7,114 bases of DNA from a virus (taxonomy: Duplodnaviria; Heunggongvirae; Uroviricota; Caudoviricetes), in the IMG/VR virus record IMGVR_UViG_2698536533_000001. One strand, 5' to 3'. The first letter of the stretch is position 1. Each line of letters opens with the position of its first letter. Below the pieces are notes generated by a model. The model saw nothing but the letters and a program-made list of their open reading frames with translations, was not told where the DNA came from and did no database searches. Below, in pieces: positions 950 to 7,114 of the stretch. The translations under genes and the position numbers were made by a program.

Positions 950-1063
950 GGTACTCCTGTGGGGGGCCCTGCCACGGAGCGTCGCAGGAGTGAGTGATGA
1001 GGAAGAATTAAAGCAACCTATTGTGACAGGCAGCGATAACAGTAAATCACAGGAAGCATAATC

Positions 1064-1828
1064 ATGGCAAAACCGGACTGGGAGGCCATCGAATCGGCAT
1101 ACCGGGCCGGAGTCCTTAGCCTCCGTGATATAGGCGAGAAATACGGCGTTACAGAAGGGGCTATCAGGAAGAGGGCCAAAAAGCTTGGTTGGGCACGCAG
1201 TGGCGGTACGCAGGTTTGCAAAAATGGTACGCAAAAAAGGAAAGTGCGTACCAGCAGAAAGCCTGCCATTACTGGCCTTACACAAAAAAGTACGCAACTA
1301 AAAACAGAATCTACACCGGATACGAAACCGATACGCGGAATGCGTACCGATCCCCCGACTAACCCATTCCAACCCGGTAACCAGCAGGCATTAAAACACG
1401 GTGGTTATGCCCGTCGCCTTCTGCTCAAAGATGAGGTGATAGAGGACGCTAAAGCGTTGACGCTCGAGGACGAATTATTTCGCCTTCGTGCTAACAACCT
1501 TGTCGCTGCAGAGAATATTGGTCGGTGGTTGGTGTCGCTGGAAGATGCTAATGGGGACCAGGAAAGGAAGATGCTGATTGAAAATATCAGCGCCGCCGAG
1601 AAAGCAATGATGCGCAATACAGTTCGTATTGAGTCCATCGTTGGCACGCTTGCGACGGTAGGAAAAATATTTGCTGATACAGCCTACCGCAAGGCCGCCA
1701 CTGATAAGGTGTCTCTGGAGGCTGATCGTCTTCGCCGTGATGCAGGTATTGATGATGGCAATGGAGAGCGTGACCTCAATGACTTCTACTCTGACATCCA
1801 AACCGACGCTGAATCCGGCTTTACGTAG
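1064..1828 (+). CDS. Terminase small subunit (N-terminal HTH DNA-binding domain)
   Basis: ATG at 1064 with AGGAAG RBS (1049-1054). N-terminus AIESAYRAGVLSLRDIGEKYGVTEGAIRKRAKKLGW is HTH-like. A basic low-complexity linker and a NPFQPGNQQALKHGGYA motif are typical of phage small terminases as I recall them. It sits immediately upstream of the large terminase. Stop is TAG at 1826-1828. Confidence 0.85.
   Translation: MAKPDWEAIESAYRAGVLSLRDIGEKYGVTEGAIRKRAKKLGWARSGGTQVCKNGTQKRKVRTSRKPAITGLTQKSTQLKTESTPDTKPIRGMRTDPPTNPFQPGNQQALKHGGYARRLLLKDEVIEDAKALTLEDELFRLRANNLVAAENIGRWLVSLEDANGDQERKMLIENISAAEKAMMRNTVRIESIVGTLATVGKIFADTAYRKAATDKVSLEADRLRRDAGIDDGNGERDLNDFYSDIQTDAESGFT
1205..1348. repeat. Cluster of 5 GTACGC-core motifs (3 direct GGTACGCA-like, 2 inverted TGCGTACC) inside terS; candidate pac or TerS recognition site
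   Basis: GGTACGCA at 1205-1212 and 1226-1233; GTACGCA at 1290-1296; TGCGTACC at 1245-1252 and 1341-1348. A 6-mer in either orientation is expected about 0.07 times in 144 bp; the rest of the window carries only about 3 copies (near 2646, 3908, 5098), which is roughly background. Confidence 0.35.
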
Positions 1829-3182
1829 TTTCTGGACTATGCGGGCACGTAACAAAGTGCTTTATGGTGGTCGGTCATCGTCAAAATCATGGGATGCCGC
1901 TGGCATTGCCATATTTCTGTCGAATAAATACACCCTGCGTTTTTGTTGTGCCCGTCAGATCCAGAATAAAATCGAAGAGTCGGTGTATACCCTGCTCAAA
2001 ATTCAGATAGACAGGTTTGGTCTGCGGCACCGTTTCCGTATTCTGAACAACAAAATCATTAACCGGGTTACTGGCTCGGAATTTGTTTTTTATGGATTAT
2101 GGCGCAACATCGAAGAAATTAAGTCACTGGAGGGGATCGATGTGTTGTGGCTGGAAGAAGCCCACGCACTGACGGAATACCAGTGGAAAATTCTGGAGCC
2201 AACGATCCGTAAAGAGGGTTCGGAATGCTGGTTCATATTCAACCCCGGACTTGTTACTGATTTCGTCTGGCGCAACTTCGTTGTTGATCCGCCCGAAGGC
2301 ACTCTCATCCGCAAAATTAACTATGACGAAAATCCGTTTCTGTCTGACACCATGCTTAAGGTTATCGACGCGGCGCGACGCCGTGATCCGGATGGTTTTA
2401 AACATGTGTATGAGGGCGTTCCGGAGTCTGATGATGATGCGGCAATCATCAAACTGTCTTGGATAGAAGCCGCAGTGGATGCGCACAAAACGTTAAATTT
2501 CGAACCCAGTGGAAGAAAGCGTATTGGCTTTGACGTGGCTGACAGTGGTACAGATAAGTGCGCTAACGTTTACCGTCACGGATCCGTTGTTTTCTGGGCC
2601 GACGAATGGAAGGCCAAAGAAGATGAATTACTGAAGAGCTGCCAGCGTACTTATCAGGCGGCGCTGGAGCGTGAAGCAGATATTGTTTACGACTCTATCG
2701 GTGTTGGTGCGTCTGCCGGTGCTAAATTCTCTGAAATTAACGCTGACCGGAAGAGCGAGAACGCATACGCGCGACGTGTGAATTACCAGAGGTTTAACGC
2801 CGGTGCTGGTGTGCATGAGCCAGATGACGAGTACAACGGCATCCCCAACAAAGACTTTTTCGCAAATCTTAAGGCTCAGGCATGGTGGCTGGTGGCTGAC
2901 CGTTTCAGAAATACGTTTAACGCCATTAACAACGGAGAACAGTATCCTGTGGATGAGCTGATCAGCATAGATTCTCGTTGTCCGTTGCTTGAAAAGCTGA
3001 AACTGGAACTGACAACACCTCATCGTGATTTCGACCGTAACGGACGTGTGATGGTCGAAAGTAAAAAAGACCTCGCAAAACGCGAGATACCGTCACCAAA
3101 CGTTGCTGATGCATTCATTATGGCCTTCGCGCCAATCGATACATCGCTGGATATCTGGGAACAGCTGGGGAGACAGGCCTGA
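1779..3182 (+). CDS. Terminase large subunit (PBSX/Terminase_6-like ATPase-nuclease); start uncertain
   Basis: Walker A-like KVLYGGRSSSKSWD preceded by LNPALRSFW, typical of PBSX-family large terminases. ORF-track start 1671 overlaps terS by 158 nt; ATG 1779 (GGAGAG RBS about 10 nt upstream, 50-nt overlap) keeps the conserved LNPAL segment. ATG 1839 is also possible but would drop that motif. Stop TGA 3180-3182 overlaps the next ATG (ATGA). Confidence 0.85.
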   Translation: MTSTLTSKPTLNPALRSFWTMRARNKVLYGGRSSSKSWDAAGIAIFLSNKYTLRFCCARQIQNKIEESVYTLLKIQIDRFGLRHRFRILNNKIINRVTGSEFVFYGLWRNIEEIKSLEGIDVLWLEEAHALTEYQWKILEPTIRKEGSECWFIFNPGLVTDFVWRNFVVDPPEGTLIRKINYDENPFLSDTMLKVIDAARRRDPDGFKHVYEGVPESDDDAAIIKLSWIEAAVDAHKTLNFEPSGRKRIGFDVADSGTDKCANVYRHGSVVFWADEWKAKEDELLKSCQRTYQAALEREADIVYDSIGVGASAGAKFSEINADRKSENAYARRVNYQRFNAGAGVHEPDDEYNGIPNKDFFANLKAQAWWLVADRFRNTFNAINNGEQYPVDELISIDSRCPLLEKLKLELTTPHRDFDRNGRVMVESKKDLAKREIPSPNVADAFIMAFAPIDTSLDIWEQLGRQA

Positions 3183-3565
3183 TGGCACGAAACAAACAAG
3201 CCCTGCGGCGAACTGTGCAGGCCACAGCTGATGGTTATGAGAATTTTATTGCCCGCGTAGGGATGCAGACACCTAACCAGCACTCAGCATCCACCTACCG
3301 GGCTAATTTCACCAGTCGTAACCGCATGCTGGTGGAATGGTCCTATCGTTCATCCTAGATCATCGGCGAAGCAGTCGATGCTATCCCGGATGATATGACC
3401 CGCAAAGGCATTCGCATCACTTCGGAAATTGATGCAAAAGATCGTGGCATTCTCGAATCACAACTGGATGAGTTGCAAATCTGGGATGCGCTGAATGACG
3501 TGCTGAAATGGTCGCGCCTCTACGGCGGCGCGGTGGGTTTCATCATGATTGAGGGGTAGGCACCA
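3182..3565 (+). pseudogene. Portal N-terminal region, same frame as the downstream portal ORF, interrupted by two in-frame amber codons (TAG 3356-3358 and 3557-3559)
   Basis: ATG 3182 overlaps the terL stop (ATGA) and has a GGGGAGA RBS. Hand translation: MARNKQALRRTVQATADGYENFIARVGMQTPNQHSASTYRANFTSRNRMLVEWSYRSS*IIGEAVDAIPDDMTRKGIRITSEIDAKDRGILESQLDELQIWDALNDVLKWSRLYGGAVGFIMIEG*APMTPL..., running in frame into the ATG at 3566. There is no frameshift, only the two TAG codons. Confidence 0.6.
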
Positions 3566-4648
3566 ATGACCCCGCTGCGACCCGAAACCATCGGTAAGGG
3601 CAAGTTTAAGGGGATTCTCCCGCTCGACCGCTGGATGGTCGACCCGGCACTGACCCGCCGCATTAAAGATATGGGGCCGGACCTGGGTAAACCTGAGTTT
3701 TACGATGTGGTGACCACAGCAACGGGAATTCCTGCCTGGCGCATTCATCACAGTCGCCTGATTCGCTTTGATGGCGTCACGTTGCCATTTCAGCAGAAGA
3801 TGACCGAGAACGAATGGGGAATGTCGGTTGTAGAGCGTATCTGGGATCGTCTTACCGCGTTCGACAGCGCTACTGTCGGCGCGGCGCAGCTGGTCTACAA
3901 GGCGCATTTGCGTACCTACAGCGTGGAGAAGCTACGCGAGCTTATCGCACTTGGTGGTCCTGCGTATGAAGCGTTGCTGAAGAATATCGACCTGATTCGA
4001 CAGTTCCAGAGTAATGAAGGCATGACGCTCATGGACTCGCGGGATAAGTTTGAAACCCATCAGTACAGCTTCAGTGGTCTGGATGACATCCTTTCGCAGT
4101 TTGTAGAACAGATTAGTGGCGCTGTTGGTATCCCACTGGTGCGGTTGTTCGGACAGTCCCCGAAAGGATTTTCTACCGGTGATGCAGACCTTGCCAACTA
4201 TTACGATCGCATCAGTTCGTTGCAGGAGAGGCGTTTACGTCTTCCGGTGCGGCGGATACTGGACATCATGCATCGTTCGGAACTTGGCAAGCCGCTGCCG
4301 GACGATTTCACGTTTGAGTTTAACCCGCTCTGGCAAATGTCTGATGTCGATCGCTCAACGGTGGCGTTAAACACCACCAACGCAATCAGTACGGCGCTGG
4401 GTGATGGTCTGATGACACTGAAAGCCGCTATGACTGATTTGCGAGAAAATTCTGACGTAACCGGCATCGGGGCATCCATTACCGACGAGGACATCGAGAA
4501 TGCCGAAGATGAAGCGCCGCCCGGCATCGGCGAACCTGATGACGAACCGCAGGAGCCGTCAGGCGGAAATCCGGTATCGAACCAGCCTACGCAGGATAGC
4601 GAGGGCGGTCGGAGACATCGTAAATGGTCGCTACGATGGTTCAAATGA
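3566..4648 (+). CDS. Phage portal protein (longest uninterrupted segment; the full frame begins at 3182)
   Basis: 360-aa ORF directly after terL in the canonical portal position, with an acidic C-terminal tail (EDEAPPGIGEPDDEPQEP...). GAGGGG RBS lies 9 nt upstream of ATG 3566. Stop TGA 4646-4648. Confidence 0.8.
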   Translation: MTPLRPETIGKGKFKGILPLDRWMVDPALTRRIKDMGPDLGKPEFYDVVTTATGIPAWRIHHSRLIRFDGVTLPFQQKMTENEWGMSVVERIWDRLTAFDSATVGAAQLVYKAHLRTYSVEKLRELIALGGPAYEALLKNIDLIRQFQSNEGMTLMDSRDKFETHQYSFSGLDDILSQFVEQISGAVGIPLVRLFGQSPKGFSTGDADLANYYDRISSLQERRLRLPVRRILDIMHRSELGKPLPDDFTFEFNPLWQMSDVDRSTVALNTTNAISTALGDGLMTLKAAMTDLRENSDVTGIGASITDEDIENAEDEAPPGIGEPDDEPQEPSGGNPVSNQPTQDSEGGRRHRKWSLRWFK

Positions 4649-5282
4649 CAGTATCACGGAAATTATTGCGGCGCTGGAGCGTTACAGTGAAATCATCACC
4701 CCCTGGGCGACAAAGGTCGCGGAAAACTTTACTGCGGACCTAACCCGGCAGAACGAGAAAGTTTGGCGGCAACACAGCAAGAACATCAGTCGCGAGCTCC
4801 GCAATCTTGTGGAAAGCGCTCCTGTGGGCCAGGTGATGCAATCCATCATCGCCGAACAGGTCAAGTACATCAAATCTCTGCCTCTCGAGGCCGCAGACAG
4901 GGTGTACGACATCCAGAACAAAGCGATAGAGGCTGTTGTCACCGGTGGTCGGGCGGAGCAGTTTGCTAAAGAGATTGCATCTACCGGCGATGTTGCTAAG
5001 TCTAGGGCCGATCTGATTGCCCGAACGGAACTGGGAAGAGCAACGGGCGCGCTGGATATGGCCCGAGCGATAGCTATTGGCTCGGATGGTTATATTTGGC
5101 GTACAGCCGATGATGGCGATGTCCGAGATTCCCACGATCACATGAAAGGTAAATTCGTCCGCTGGGATTCACCTCCAACTTTGGACGGCATGACCGGCCA
5201 CGCGGGCGAGCTGCCAAACTGCCGCTGCTATAAAGAGATCGTGTTTGTTCGCGTTCCATTCGCAATGAAAAGGGCAGCATAA
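4500..5282 (+). CDS. Head morphogenesis protein, Mu F / SPP1 gp7 family
   Basis: C-terminal region IWRTADDGDVRDSHDHMKGKFVRWDSPPTLDGMTGHAGELPNCRCYKEIV carries the D-x-R-x-x-H ... NCRC signature I associate with Mu F-like domains. GAGGA RBS 8 nt upstream of ATG 4500; alternative start at ATG 4539. It overlaps the portal 3' end by 149 nt in another frame. Confidence 0.8.
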   Translation: MPKMKRRPASANLMTNRRSRQAEIRYRTSLRRIARAVGDIVNGRYDGSNDSITEIIAALERYSEIITPWATKVAENFTADLTRQNEKVWRQHSKNISRELRNLVESAPVGQVMQSIIAEQVKYIKSLPLEAADRVYDIQNKAIEAVVTGGRAEQFAKEIASTGDVAKSRADLIARTELGRATGALDMARAIAIGSDGYIWRTADDGDVRDSHDHMKGKFVRWDSPPTLDGMTGHAGELPNCRCYKEIVFVRVPFAMKRAA

Positions 5283-5285
5283 CCC

Positions 5286-6506
5286 ATGAAATACTTTTTT
5301 GAGACCAGGCTCGGGGAAACCCGATACCGCCTGGCTGACGGCTCGTTGCTGTGCAAAGACGTGCCGATAGGACGAACAGGTAAGCAGCTCTATGGTGCTG
5401 ATGACCTGCCAAAACTGAAACCCGATAAGTTCGGTGAAATAGTCGTCACGCGTTCTCCTGAGCAGGTATTCCATCCGGCCACGCTTGCCTCATTCGAAGG
5501 GATGAGCATCACGATCCTGCATCCTGAAGATGAAAACGGGAATGTGCGGCTGGTAAATCCCGAGAACTGGAAAGAGCTTGCTGTCGGGCACCTCCAGAAT
5601 GTCCGGCGCGGGACGGGTGAGCAGTCTGATTTGATGCTGGCTGACCTTATCGTCAAAGACGAAAGCGCCATTCAGCTTATCGAAGATGGCCTGCGCGAAG
5701 TGTCGTGCGGCTATGACGCGGAGTACGAGCAGACCGAGCCAGGTAAAGCCGAGCAGGTCGATATTACCGGAAACCATGTGGCTCTTGTCCCTAAAGGCAG
5801 AGCCGGAAATCGTTGTGCAATTGGAGACAGAGACACAATGGCAAATCAAAAGAAAAACTGGTGGAACCGCATGCGTGCGGCCATCAAGACAGGAGATGCC
5901 GACACCATGAACGAACTGGTGGAGTCGGCTCCCGCATCGGTTACAGGAGATGAGGGGGATTTGCCGCAGGGCGTTAATCTCAACATCAACCTGTCCCCGC
6001 AGCAACCACTACCGGACAAAGCACCAGAGATGGGCGGAGATCCAACCGGCGACAGTGATGATGACCTCAAAACATTACTGAAAGCCCTGCTGGCTAAGCT
6101 GGAAAGAAATGCCACGGGCGATAACGATAATAAGCCTGACGATAATCCGACCGGTGACGGCGAGGACGATGAAGAGGAAACCACGATTACTGGTGACTCA
6201 GCCTGGCGTGCCGAAGTTATCGTTCCGGGTATCGATCTGAGCCGTAAGATGAAACCGACCGCGTTCAAACGCGAGGTTCTGGCTTCTGCTGACAAAACGC
6301 TGGTTCGCCAGATAGTCGGTGATGCGGATATCCGCAAATTACCGAAACAATCGGTCGACATGGCGTTTAATGCCGTGTCTGAGGTTGCCAAAGGGCGAAA
6401 CACCCGCGCCACCACCGGCGATGCACAGCGCCTAAACATGGGCATGACCAGTATCGCTTCCCTGAACAAACAAAACGCTGAATTCTGGGCAAACCGTAAA
6501 GGGTAA
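5286..6506 (+). CDS. Putative scaffolding (or protease/scaffold) protein with acidic low-complexity central region
   Basis: 406-aa ORF 4 nt after the previous stop. The central region is rich in D/E with recurring TGD tripeptides (VTGDEGD, PTGDSDDD, ATGDNDN, PTGDGEDDEEE, ITGDSAW, TTGDAQ). Its position between the Mu F-like gene and downstream head genes fits a scaffold. Function is inferred from position and composition only. Confidence 0.5.
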   Translation: MKYFFETRLGETRYRLADGSLLCKDVPIGRTGKQLYGADDLPKLKPDKFGEIVVTRSPEQVFHPATLASFEGMSITILHPEDENGNVRLVNPENWKELAVGHLQNVRRGTGEQSDLMLADLIVKDESAIQLIEDGLREVSCGYDAEYEQTEPGKAEQVDITGNHVALVPKGRAGNRCAIGDRDTMANQKKNWWNRMRAAIKTGDADTMNELVESAPASVTGDEGDLPQGVNLNINLSPQQPLPDKAPEMGGDPTGDSDDDLKTLLKALLAKLERNATGDNDNKPDDNPTGDGEDDEEETTITGDSAWRAEVIVPGIDLSRKMKPTAFKREVLASADKTLVRQIVGDADIRKLPKQSVDMAFNAVSEVAKGRNTRATTGDAQRLNMGMTSIASLNKQNAEFWANRKG

Positions 6507-6509
6507 AAA

Positions 6510-7016
6510 ATGAATAATGTATTTCTGTACCGGATGCCTGTTGGCATTGCCGGGGCTGTCTCTCGCCCGCAGGACTTAACCGTCGAACCGGTGGTCCTTA
6601 AATCCGATAACGCCTTCGCTGCCTATGGCCTGGCTGGTAAATACGATGATGACGGTTTTTTCGTGCCGCTGGCAGATGGTGATACCGCAGACAAGGTGAA
6701 GGGGATCTACGTGCGCCCTTATCCGACCACGTCGCAGCCGGACATGGTTCGCCAGGTGGGAACAGGCAAGAACTTCCCGGGCGACGCCATGAAGCGTGGC
6801 TACGTGACCGTTAATCTCGGTTCTGATTTTGATGCCAGCACTATCAAAAAAGGCGATCCGGTATACGTTGTCGTCTCCACTGATGAATCCATCAAAGTGC
6901 CGCTGGGTGGATTCATGTCCACGTCAGTCAGTGGCAAAAACGTGGTGCTGACCAACGCTGAATTCACAGGTGCCGGTGATGCTGACGGCAATGCAGAAAT
7001 TTCCTGGAAGATTTAA
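6510..7016 (+). CDS. Hypothetical head-associated structural protein (168 aa)
   Basis: ATG 6510 with AAAGGG RBS (6498-6503, 6-nt spacer), tightly coupled to the upstream gene and in the head-module position. No family confidently recognised from sequence alone. Confidence 0.6.
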   Translation: MNNVFLYRMPVGIAGAVSRPQDLTVEPVVLKSDNAFAAYGLAGKYDDDGFFVPLADGDTADKVKGIYVRPYPTTSQPDMVRQVGTGKNFPGDAMKRGYVTVNLGSDFDASTIKKGDPVYVVVSTDESIKVPLGGFMSTSVSGKNVVLTNAEFTGAGDADGNAEISWKI

Positions 7017-7114
7017 GGAACAGACGAATGAGGTGATGCTGCCAACTTACTGATTTAGTGTATGATGGTGTTTTTGAGGTGCTCCAGTGGCTTCTGTTTC
7101 TATCAGCTGTCCCT

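Follow-up and report, generated by a model that had tools for sequence, protein, structure and literature searches.

The stretch of DNA analysed here (the window) comprises 7,114 nucleotides of the IMG/VR virus record IMGVR_UViG_2698536533_000001 (Caudoviricetes) and is part of an Escherichia coli prophage that includes the terminase genes terS and terL (Table 1). Our subject is a cluster of short boxes inside terS, the gene of the small terminase subunit (TerS), and its probable role in DNA packaging. A sequence-only reading of the window had reported five copies of an 8-mer within 144 bp, one of them matching at 7 of 8 positions, and had named the cluster a candidate pac site. All five were found exactly where they had been placed: four exact copies of GGTACGCA or its reverse complement TGCGTACC, and one AGTACGCA, at 1205-1348. 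The core GTACGC occurs eight times on the two strands of the 7,114 nt, with five of the eight within 144 bp and three in the about 6,800 nt outside the cluster.

The expectation of about 0.07 core copies per 144 bp given by that reading is correct under a uniform model, and five copies of GTACGC within 144 bp were obtained in 0 of 5,000 simulations under a first-order Markov model of the window. When any complex 6-mer anywhere in the window was allowed, at least five copies within 144 bp appeared in 2.75% of 2,000 simulations. The cluster is real, and taken from the window alone it is moderately compelling (look-elsewhere P ~0.03); for the reality of the array we regard the sequence comparison with relatives as decisive.

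Three degenerate boxes that the sequence-only reading had overlooked are intact in relatives (Table 1). The fullest arrays among relatives (GZ7-type, '+++++-++-') contain 8-10 boxes; the window contains five intact ones in the pattern '++-+-', with three box positions mutated and one 12-nt unit missing, and relatives ~98% identical to the window retain a sixth box. The placement of box 3 agrees with the conserved layout of direct boxes followed by an inverted one. Box 5 is the least certain member of the array: it is missing from Chronis and pAEv1818, and in locus L076, which has another type of DNA-binding domain, it is present and accompanies the downstream segment. A single GTACGC in terL (2645-2650, minus strand) was considered as part of the array and dropped, being an isolated copy in conserved coding sequence. 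Most relatives with this terL type retain it at the same position (1582- or 1594-, counted from the start of terS), and it may be just conserved coding sequence.

Table 1. Genes, protein segments and boxes in the window. Codon counts refer to the alignment of terS sequences described in the text.
Feature	Position	Strand	Remarks
Lysis genes			upstream end of the gene order
DedA-family gene	357-869	minus	
terS	1064-1828	+	small terminase subunit, 254 aa
Helix-turn-helix coding segment	1121-1186	+	helix 2 = residues 20-27
Recognition helix	1154-1186	+	residues 31-41, EGAIRKRAKKL
Degenerate box GGCACGCA (T to C)	1192-1199	+	intact GGTACGCA, read W-V-R, in nearly all relatives; GTA in 66/67, CGC in 68/69 sequences
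Predicted disordered linker coding region	1205-1357	+	residues 48-98; pLDDT <50, no secondary structure
Box 1, GGTACGCA	1205-1212	+	G-T-Q; codons GGT 51/51, ACG 68/68
Degenerate box GGTTTGCA	1213-1220	+	GGTACGCA, read V-R, in most relatives; GTA CGC in 60/68 sequences, GTT TGC in the window's lineage
Box 2, GGTACGCA	1226-1233	+	G-T-Q; codons GGT 68/69, ACG 70/70
Box 3, TGCGTACC on +	1245-1252	minus (inverted)	V-R-T; Arg codon CGT 66/68
Degenerate box CTTACACA	1277-1284	+	CGTACGCA, read R-T-Q, in many Klebsiella-phage relatives
Box 4, AGTACGCA (7/8 match)	1289-1296	+	S-T-Q
Box 5, TGCGTACC on +	1341-1348	minus (inverted)	M-R-T, inside the conserved TKPIRGxRT segment
terL	1779-3182	+	large terminase subunit
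Portal (DUF1073)	3182-4648		
Mu F-like head morphogenesis protein	about 4540-5282		start as annotated in near-identical prophage
DUF2213	5286-6506		
Cement protein	6510-7016		

The gene that carries the boxes lies directly upstream of terL with a short overlap, and it matches PHROG phrog_370 'terminase small subunit' over residues 1-252 (E 7.5e-95); position and profile together fit a small terminase. The family-model search assigned TerS to no Pfam or NCBIfam family, with weak Pfam matches to Sigma70_r4 and HTH_AsnC over residues 17-41, and the sequence search of solved structures returned no relative; its sole hit was to Cif, by chance and over 34 residues. An AlphaFold2 model built from 16 sequences predicted an N-terminal three-helix domain (helices at residues 6-15, 20-27 and 31-41; predicted local distance difference test score, pLDDT, 81-90) and long helices at residues 114-161 and 165-199. 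The segment that co-varies with the box word, as described below, is residues 30-36 (TEGAIRK) of this domain. All five intact boxes fall in codons 48-95, within the predicted disordered linker. According to the model, such a linker should tolerate almost any sequence, and the DNA signal would therefore dictate the peptide (GTQ, VR, RT) and not the reverse.

The product of terL matched Pfam Terminase_3 (E 4.5e-38) and the TIGR01547 model of the PBSX family (142.5 bits against a cut-off of 105), and it aligned over its full length, residues 10-449, with Sf6 gp2 (PDB 4IDH; E 9.4e-79). These matches bear out the earlier impression of a PBSX-type large terminase. The start of terL at 1779 is the one in the RefSeq annotation of a near-identical prophage.

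The sequence-only reading had cautioned that part of the repetition coincides with repeated T-Q peptide motifs. This holds for the three direct copies in the window, which are read as xGT ACG CAx, i.e., [G/S]-T-Q. It fails as a cause: the two inverted copies are read as xxG CGT ACC, i.e., x-R-T, and synonymous sites within the boxes are frozen. Further direct copies in relatives are read as GTA CGC, i.e., V-R, and the degenerate boxes at 1192 and 1213 are mutated forms of these. One DNA word thus occupies three codon registers in both orientations; a tandem peptide repeat would keep to one frame and leave its synonymous sites free.

In an alignment of 70 distinct terS 5' halves, four-fold sites only a few codons from the boxes vary freely and the box codons are almost invariant. 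Synonymous codon diversity was 0.039 in box columns versus 0.262 in the 80 other columns (Mann-Whitney P = 4e-4). In 254 of 265 cases the Thr of xTQ was encoded by ACG, a codon used for only ~27% of Thr in other parts of these genes. The residue that precedes TQ may be Gly, Ser, Arg or Cys, yet its codon is NGT in 244 of the 265 cases, and the residue before the R-T of the inverted box may be A, V, M, S, T, P, L or K, with a codon that nearly always ends in G. The check proposed with the candidate, conservation of the motifs independently of the peptide, therefore came out in its favour. These comparisons of coding sequences show that the boxes have been kept by selection acting on DNA and not on protein. 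Since synonymous sites are frozen, registers differ and flanking residues vary, the repetition of T-Q in the peptide is best seen as a consequence of the DNA word.

Box word and recognition helix were found to vary together across 230 distinct loci from viral contigs and bacterial genomes of Enterobacterales, Pseudomonas, Acinetobacter, Comamonadaceae, Burkholderiales and others. The loci were gathered with two peptide patterns, one that constrained the helix and one that did not, the latter recovering unconstrained variants. The map from helix to word was one-to-one. The helix [ST][ED]GA[IV]RK goes with GTACGC in 179 loci, among them the window, GZ7, HK639 and SEN34; THGA[IV]NK or THSAINK with GTATCC (27 loci, including USP_18 and AP1); [ST]HQAISK or SHTAIQK with GTTGCC (8 loci, including PSTCR7lys); SDTAIRK with GTTCGC (4 loci, including PseuP_222 and Shamal); SHVAI[NAM]K with GTTACC (4 loci); SHTAINK with GTTTCC (3 loci); and NHATILK or SHPAITK with GTAACC (2 loci, including BHUENT3).

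Where the body of the protein is the same and the recognition helix is altered, a different word stands at the same positions. The box is GGTTGCCA in PSTCR7lys (helix THQAISK), GGTAACCA in BHUENT3 (NHATILK) and GGTATCCA in USP_18 and AP1 (THGAINK or THGAVNK). PseuP_222 and Shamal (SDTAIRK) have GGTTCGCA; their peptide is still V-R, and every copy has GTT in place of GTA. Gly or Thr at helix position 3 corresponds to A or T at base 3 of the box, in Arg and Asn backgrounds alike, and Arg or Asn at helix position 6 corresponds to CG or TC. The central bases of the box are thereby shown, at the level of sequence, to change one-for-one with residues of the recognition helix.

At least three copies of one GTNNNC word were present in the 300 nt past the domain in 227 of the 230 loci, compared with 31 of 1,245 control windows drawn from the same loci, and the word proper to each locus had a density of 5.1 copies per 300 nt inside the array and 0.15 outside it. 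Homologous genes have in common a layout of at least three direct boxes and then an inverted one; its commonest form is '+++-', with direct boxes spaced 12, 13 or 15 bp and 19 or 28 bp to the inverted box, and the extended consensus of the box is nG-GTNNNC-A(A/G/C). From these regularities we lean towards a general reading, with less confidence than for the role of the array itself: that a large group of Proteobacterial TerS proteins has a common N-terminal helix-turn-helix and recognises with it an 8-bp box (nGGTNNNCA) according to a simple modular code, in which helix position 3 (G or T) would set box base 3 (A or T) and helix position 6 (R, N, S, Q and others) the next two bases. The group would span at least three body families and include phages of Enterobacterales, Pseudomonas, Acinetobacter, Comamonadaceae and others. 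With such a code, packaging specificity would be predictable from the protein sequence.

The array also travels with the N-terminal domain. Phage records and viral contigs yielded 143 distinct terS genes. In the 72 of these that have the helix G[VI][TS]EGAIRK, one of them from an Aeromonas phage at 54% protein identity, GTACGC occurs on average 7.1 times in nt 91-330 and 0.08 times in the remainder of the gene. Another 64 have a homologous C-terminal body and another N-terminal domain (…NYSSAKRYIK), with 0.02 GTACGC and 5.8 TGCGAA(T) at the same place. Domain and array are swapped as one unit, joined to differing bodies near a conserved TKPIRG (Chronis, L076). A search with the N-terminal 45 residues only found TerS proteins with unrelated bodies that share the domain, namely phrog_1206 (HK639, SEN34, GF-2 and Klebsiella phage 2b) and Erwinia EhrS_59. 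Their terS genes have GTACGC as three direct copies and one inverted copy at nt 175-230, encoded as V-R-K, and the arrangement of domain and boxes stays the same where the large terminase encoded downstream is of another type. In Pantoea phage PdC23, the TEGAIRK helix is kept together with a different linker that has no boxes, and three GTACGCA boxes lie between annotated genes, 48-68 nt upstream of terS, with one more at nt 51; relatives of this TerS were not found in the viral contigs. An array at the corresponding position is a feature of nearly all relatives, down to 54% protein identity, and also of other body families.

Other words were seen in TerS genes of the phrog_370 body. TGCGAAT/ATTCGCA boxes, in part TGCGAATTCGCA palindromes, occur in L009 (455-1195), L004 (1737-2477) and 62 further loci. 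The terS of Stx-converting phages (L013, vB_EcoP_phi296; phrog_370) has four copies of CGATCATGA, i.e., (C/T)GATCAT(G/A)A, at nt 137-190 with a 12-bp period. These encode I-D-H-E repeats, and each contains a GATC Dam site, recalling the pac hexamers of P1; by analogy they are a possible pac array of Stx phages.

A bare array was found in E. coli 47-1826 (NZ_CP184839 4779753-4791666; L003 1990-2165 / L347), at the end of a ~12-kb satellite-like island next to tRNA-Ile that carries genes for integrase, antirepressor, an Icd-like protein, primase, ProQ/FinO, PerC and peptidase M41. It has five GTACGC boxes and no intact terS. A second copy of the island (L348) is 95.8% identical, lies in a different neighbourhood and has two of the five boxes mutated. 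The island could borrow a packaging signal, an unproven lead.

Recognition of packaging sites is the established role of TerS. Packaging strategy is commonly predicted from the type of the large terminase, and Sf6 is a headful packager. We consider it probable that the GGTACGCA boxes are the recognition array of the phage's own small terminase, i.e., the recognition part of a pac site. The choice of pac follows from the nature of the two proteins, a small terminase and an Sf6-type/PBSX large terminase, which also suggests headful packaging by this phage. All boxes lie within the phage's own terS, the placement expected of a pac site, and their conservation at the DNA level is seen in the synonymous sites, the three registers and PdC23. 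The candidate named by the sequence-only reading is in this way supported, although not demonstrated, by comparative evidence: the co-variation in 230 loci, PdC23 and the frozen codons.

In the mechanism that we propose, several helix-turn-helix domains of a TerS oligomer would occupy consecutive boxes on the concatemer; the distances between boxes are compatible with DNA that runs round a ring of such domains. The Sf6-type large terminase would be recruited by the C-terminal part of TerS and would make its first cut nearby, probably imprecisely, and headful packaging would proceed from that cut. The same array could serve as a cosB-like anchor in relatives with other large-terminase types.

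Several points weigh against this reading. A mere ~50-150 bp separates the helix-turn-helix from the array, and some of the association between the two is simply due to linkage in a cassette that is exchanged as a whole. The loci share phylogenetic history, and with roughly seven word classes over at least three body families, the locus counts overstate the number of independent switches of helix and box. The structure model of TerS is of moderate quality (mean pLDDT 63, shallow alignment). The window itself has mutated ancestral boxes and a broken portal gene. Box positions in the second copy of the satellite-like island are no better conserved than the flanks (2/30 versus 9/254), and we therefore do not count the island array as support. 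The sequence is also compatible with an operator role, alone or besides packaging initiation. Finally, no virion end mapping, coverage step or gel shift for this TerS family was found in the literature; the Mulock genome paper (PMC6856289) contains no packaging or terminus data, and literature searches on 933W pac, the HK639 terminase and the box word in terminases found nothing relevant. Linkage within a cassette leaves unexplained the joint change of all copies of the box, the occurrence of one word with unrelated bodies and registers, PdC23 and the modularity, and binding of the boxes by the helix-turn-helix of TerS is thus the simplest explanation of the sequence data.

Two alternatives survive best, although we regard both as improbable. 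The first is that the boxes are operators of TerS or of another helix-turn-helix protein and regulate late genes, for example by autoregulation of terS and terL, without marking the start of packaging. Arrays of direct and inverted boxes are typical of operators too, and co-variation reveals the specificity of binding and not its purpose. However, the array is in a coding region, 130-290 nt past the start codon and not at a promoter; the matching helix belongs to a terminase small subunit (phrog_370 or phrog_1206), and its arrangement with the boxes is indifferent to the type of large terminase downstream.

The second, about as unlikely, is that the boxes are the cosB-like anchor of a cos phage, at which TerS positions the large terminase for a staggered cut at a nearby cosN. 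A set of boxes that includes an inverted one, and a box specificity that is tied to the helix, are described likewise for the cosB R sites of lambda, 21 and N15 (PMC4669245), and the cassette of domain and boxes does occur with several large-terminase types, some of which are possibly cos enzymes. The terL of the window, by contrast, is of the Sf6 gp2 and PBSX kind described above and not of the lambda type, and no cos-like feature turned up in the window, where no search aimed at cosN was made.

It is very unlikely that the repeats are a by-product of a repeated basic T-Q/V-R linker peptide, kept for non-specific DNA contact or flexibility, for instance, and duplicated as 12-nt units by slippage. 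The peptide of the three direct copies in the window would suit such an origin, as would the abundance of K, R, T and Q in the linker and the fact that relatives differ by 12-nt insertions or deletions, each one box unit long. Against it, the same word yields the unrelated peptides VR, TQ and RT, depending on register and orientation, and the residue flanking a box is free while its codon keeps the box base. Moreover, the copies in homologues shift jointly from VR to VA, VS or VT, which are chemically unlike but match the recognition helix; PseuP_222 retains VR with GTT in every copy; and the boxes of PdC23 lie between annotated genes. Chance or composition, for which only the look-elsewhere frequency of the window speaks, is negligible as an explanation; the simulations with this word speak against it, and the comparative data on relatives, body families and control windows refute it.

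The particular copy of the prophage in the window may have lost the use of this site. Its portal gene is interrupted in frame by two nonsense codons, TGA for TGG at 3357 and TAG for CAG at 3557; neither occurs in the prophage of E. coli strain FDAARGOS_944, which is 99.9% identical to the window over positions 1000-3200. This copy is therefore probably defective, its pac array may be decaying and the boxes may no longer be in use here. Over the same positions, a group of temperate Klebsiella phages (GZ7, Mulock, ST16-OXA48phi5.2 and Wanchaivirus) shows ~84% identity.

Other observations concern the surroundings of the array. Lysis genes and terS are separated by the DedA-family membrane protein gene (about 357-869), which has the opposite orientation; it looks like a moron insertion and is so annotated in the near-identical prophage. 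Upstream of it, 251-392 is a run of 142 N (masked or unknown bases) that interrupts the region, and the open reading frames listed across it are therefore unreliable. The last ~80 nt (7032-7114) diverge sharply from the otherwise near-identical FDAARGOS_944 prophage, which suggests a mosaic boundary directly after the cement-protein gene. The first 40 nt of this terS recur at 95% identity, without an annotated gene, in many E. coli genomes, for example in the chromosomes of E. coli B / BL21 / REL606 (NC_012967 790812-790851), presumably as a prophage remnant.

Only a small number of packaging recognition sites of headful phages have been defined, and the way in which rings of small terminase read DNA is a matter of debate. 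No description of this array was found in the searchable literature, which is itself only part of the field. If our reading is true, this would be, as far as our searches reach, the first system of the pac or cosB type with a readable recognition code and natural specificity variants, and a ready-made experimental system for DNA recognition by TerS rings. With its sharp 8-bp box, its fixed layout and no fewer than seven natural specificity pairs of helix and box, the family makes tests of binding, of swapped specificity and of packaging in cis easy to design. Applications of the box word could include the prediction of prophages that can package one another's DNA or are open to exploitation by satellites, the location of likely starts of generalized or lateral transduction in prophages of E. 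coli, Klebsiella and Pseudomonas, and the design of packageable vectors. The array would also be a clear case of a DNA signal that shapes the amino-acid sequence of a disordered protein segment.

Among known packaging systems, the closest mechanistic analogue appears to be the cosB of lambda-type phages, in which gpNu1 uses its winged helix-turn-helix to bind the boxes R3, R2 and R1, of which one is inverted; differences in recognition helix and boxes set the packaging-specificity classes of lambda, 21 and N15, and N15 has an accessory box within its terS gene (PMC4669245). Several short boxes, one of them inverted, and co-variation of helix and box are common to both systems, '+++-' being the commonest layout here and the correspondence of helix and box being read from sequence. 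However, most of cosB is found between cosN and the beginning of the TerS gene, and the array described here is confined to the segment that encodes the linker. Lambda cosB works with a cos-cutting large terminase and a bend made by IHF, whereas the partner here is an Sf6-type large terminase. The boxes are 8 bp here and ~16 bp in cosB, and the TerS described here has no detectable sequence match to any solved structure.

In placement, the pac site of P1 seems to be closest. Seven TGATCA/G hexamers, grouped in two clusters inside pacA, make up this site of a headful packaging enzyme; they contain Dam sites and are under the control of methylation. PacA has no relation to the TerS studied here. 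Both systems place short reiterated words within the gene of the recognition subunit, over a span of ~150 bp. The GTACGC boxes lack GATC, in contrast to the P1 hexamers and to the homologous array of the Stx phages (four CGATCATGA).

The pac sites of P22 and Sf6 reportedly lie inside the small terminase gene as well. That of P22 is a single asymmetric site of ~22 bp, and the TerS proteins of P22 and Sf6 belong to a different family. The recognition sequence within terS is thus a shared feature, and the large terminase here is closely related to Sf6 gp2, its nearest relative of solved structure, but an array of reiterated boxes stands in place of the single site of P22. Segments of TerS that bind DNA are horizontally exchanged as modules among P22-like phages (PMC4669245), as is the cassette of domain and array here. 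For the P22-like prophage Gally of LF82, pac was mapped to its terS by a coverage step (PMC9928086). We considered Gally as a precedent and rejected it, its P22-like TerS of 140 aa being unrelated to this one, so that it serves as an analogy only.

In SPP1, reiterated boxes (pacL and pacR) are bound by the TerS protein G1P, an oligomer with helix-turn-helix motifs arranged in a ring, and the title of the study presents recognition as multiple sequence-independent interactions (PMC4737164). Reiterated boxes are common to SPP1 and the array described here, which differs in its sharp 8-mer and its readable correspondence between helix and base. The boxes of SPP1 lie partly upstream of gene 1. What sets the present array apart from these systems is the combination of a location wholly within the linker-coding segment, a sharp 8-mer, an apparently readable code and a distribution over several TerS body families.

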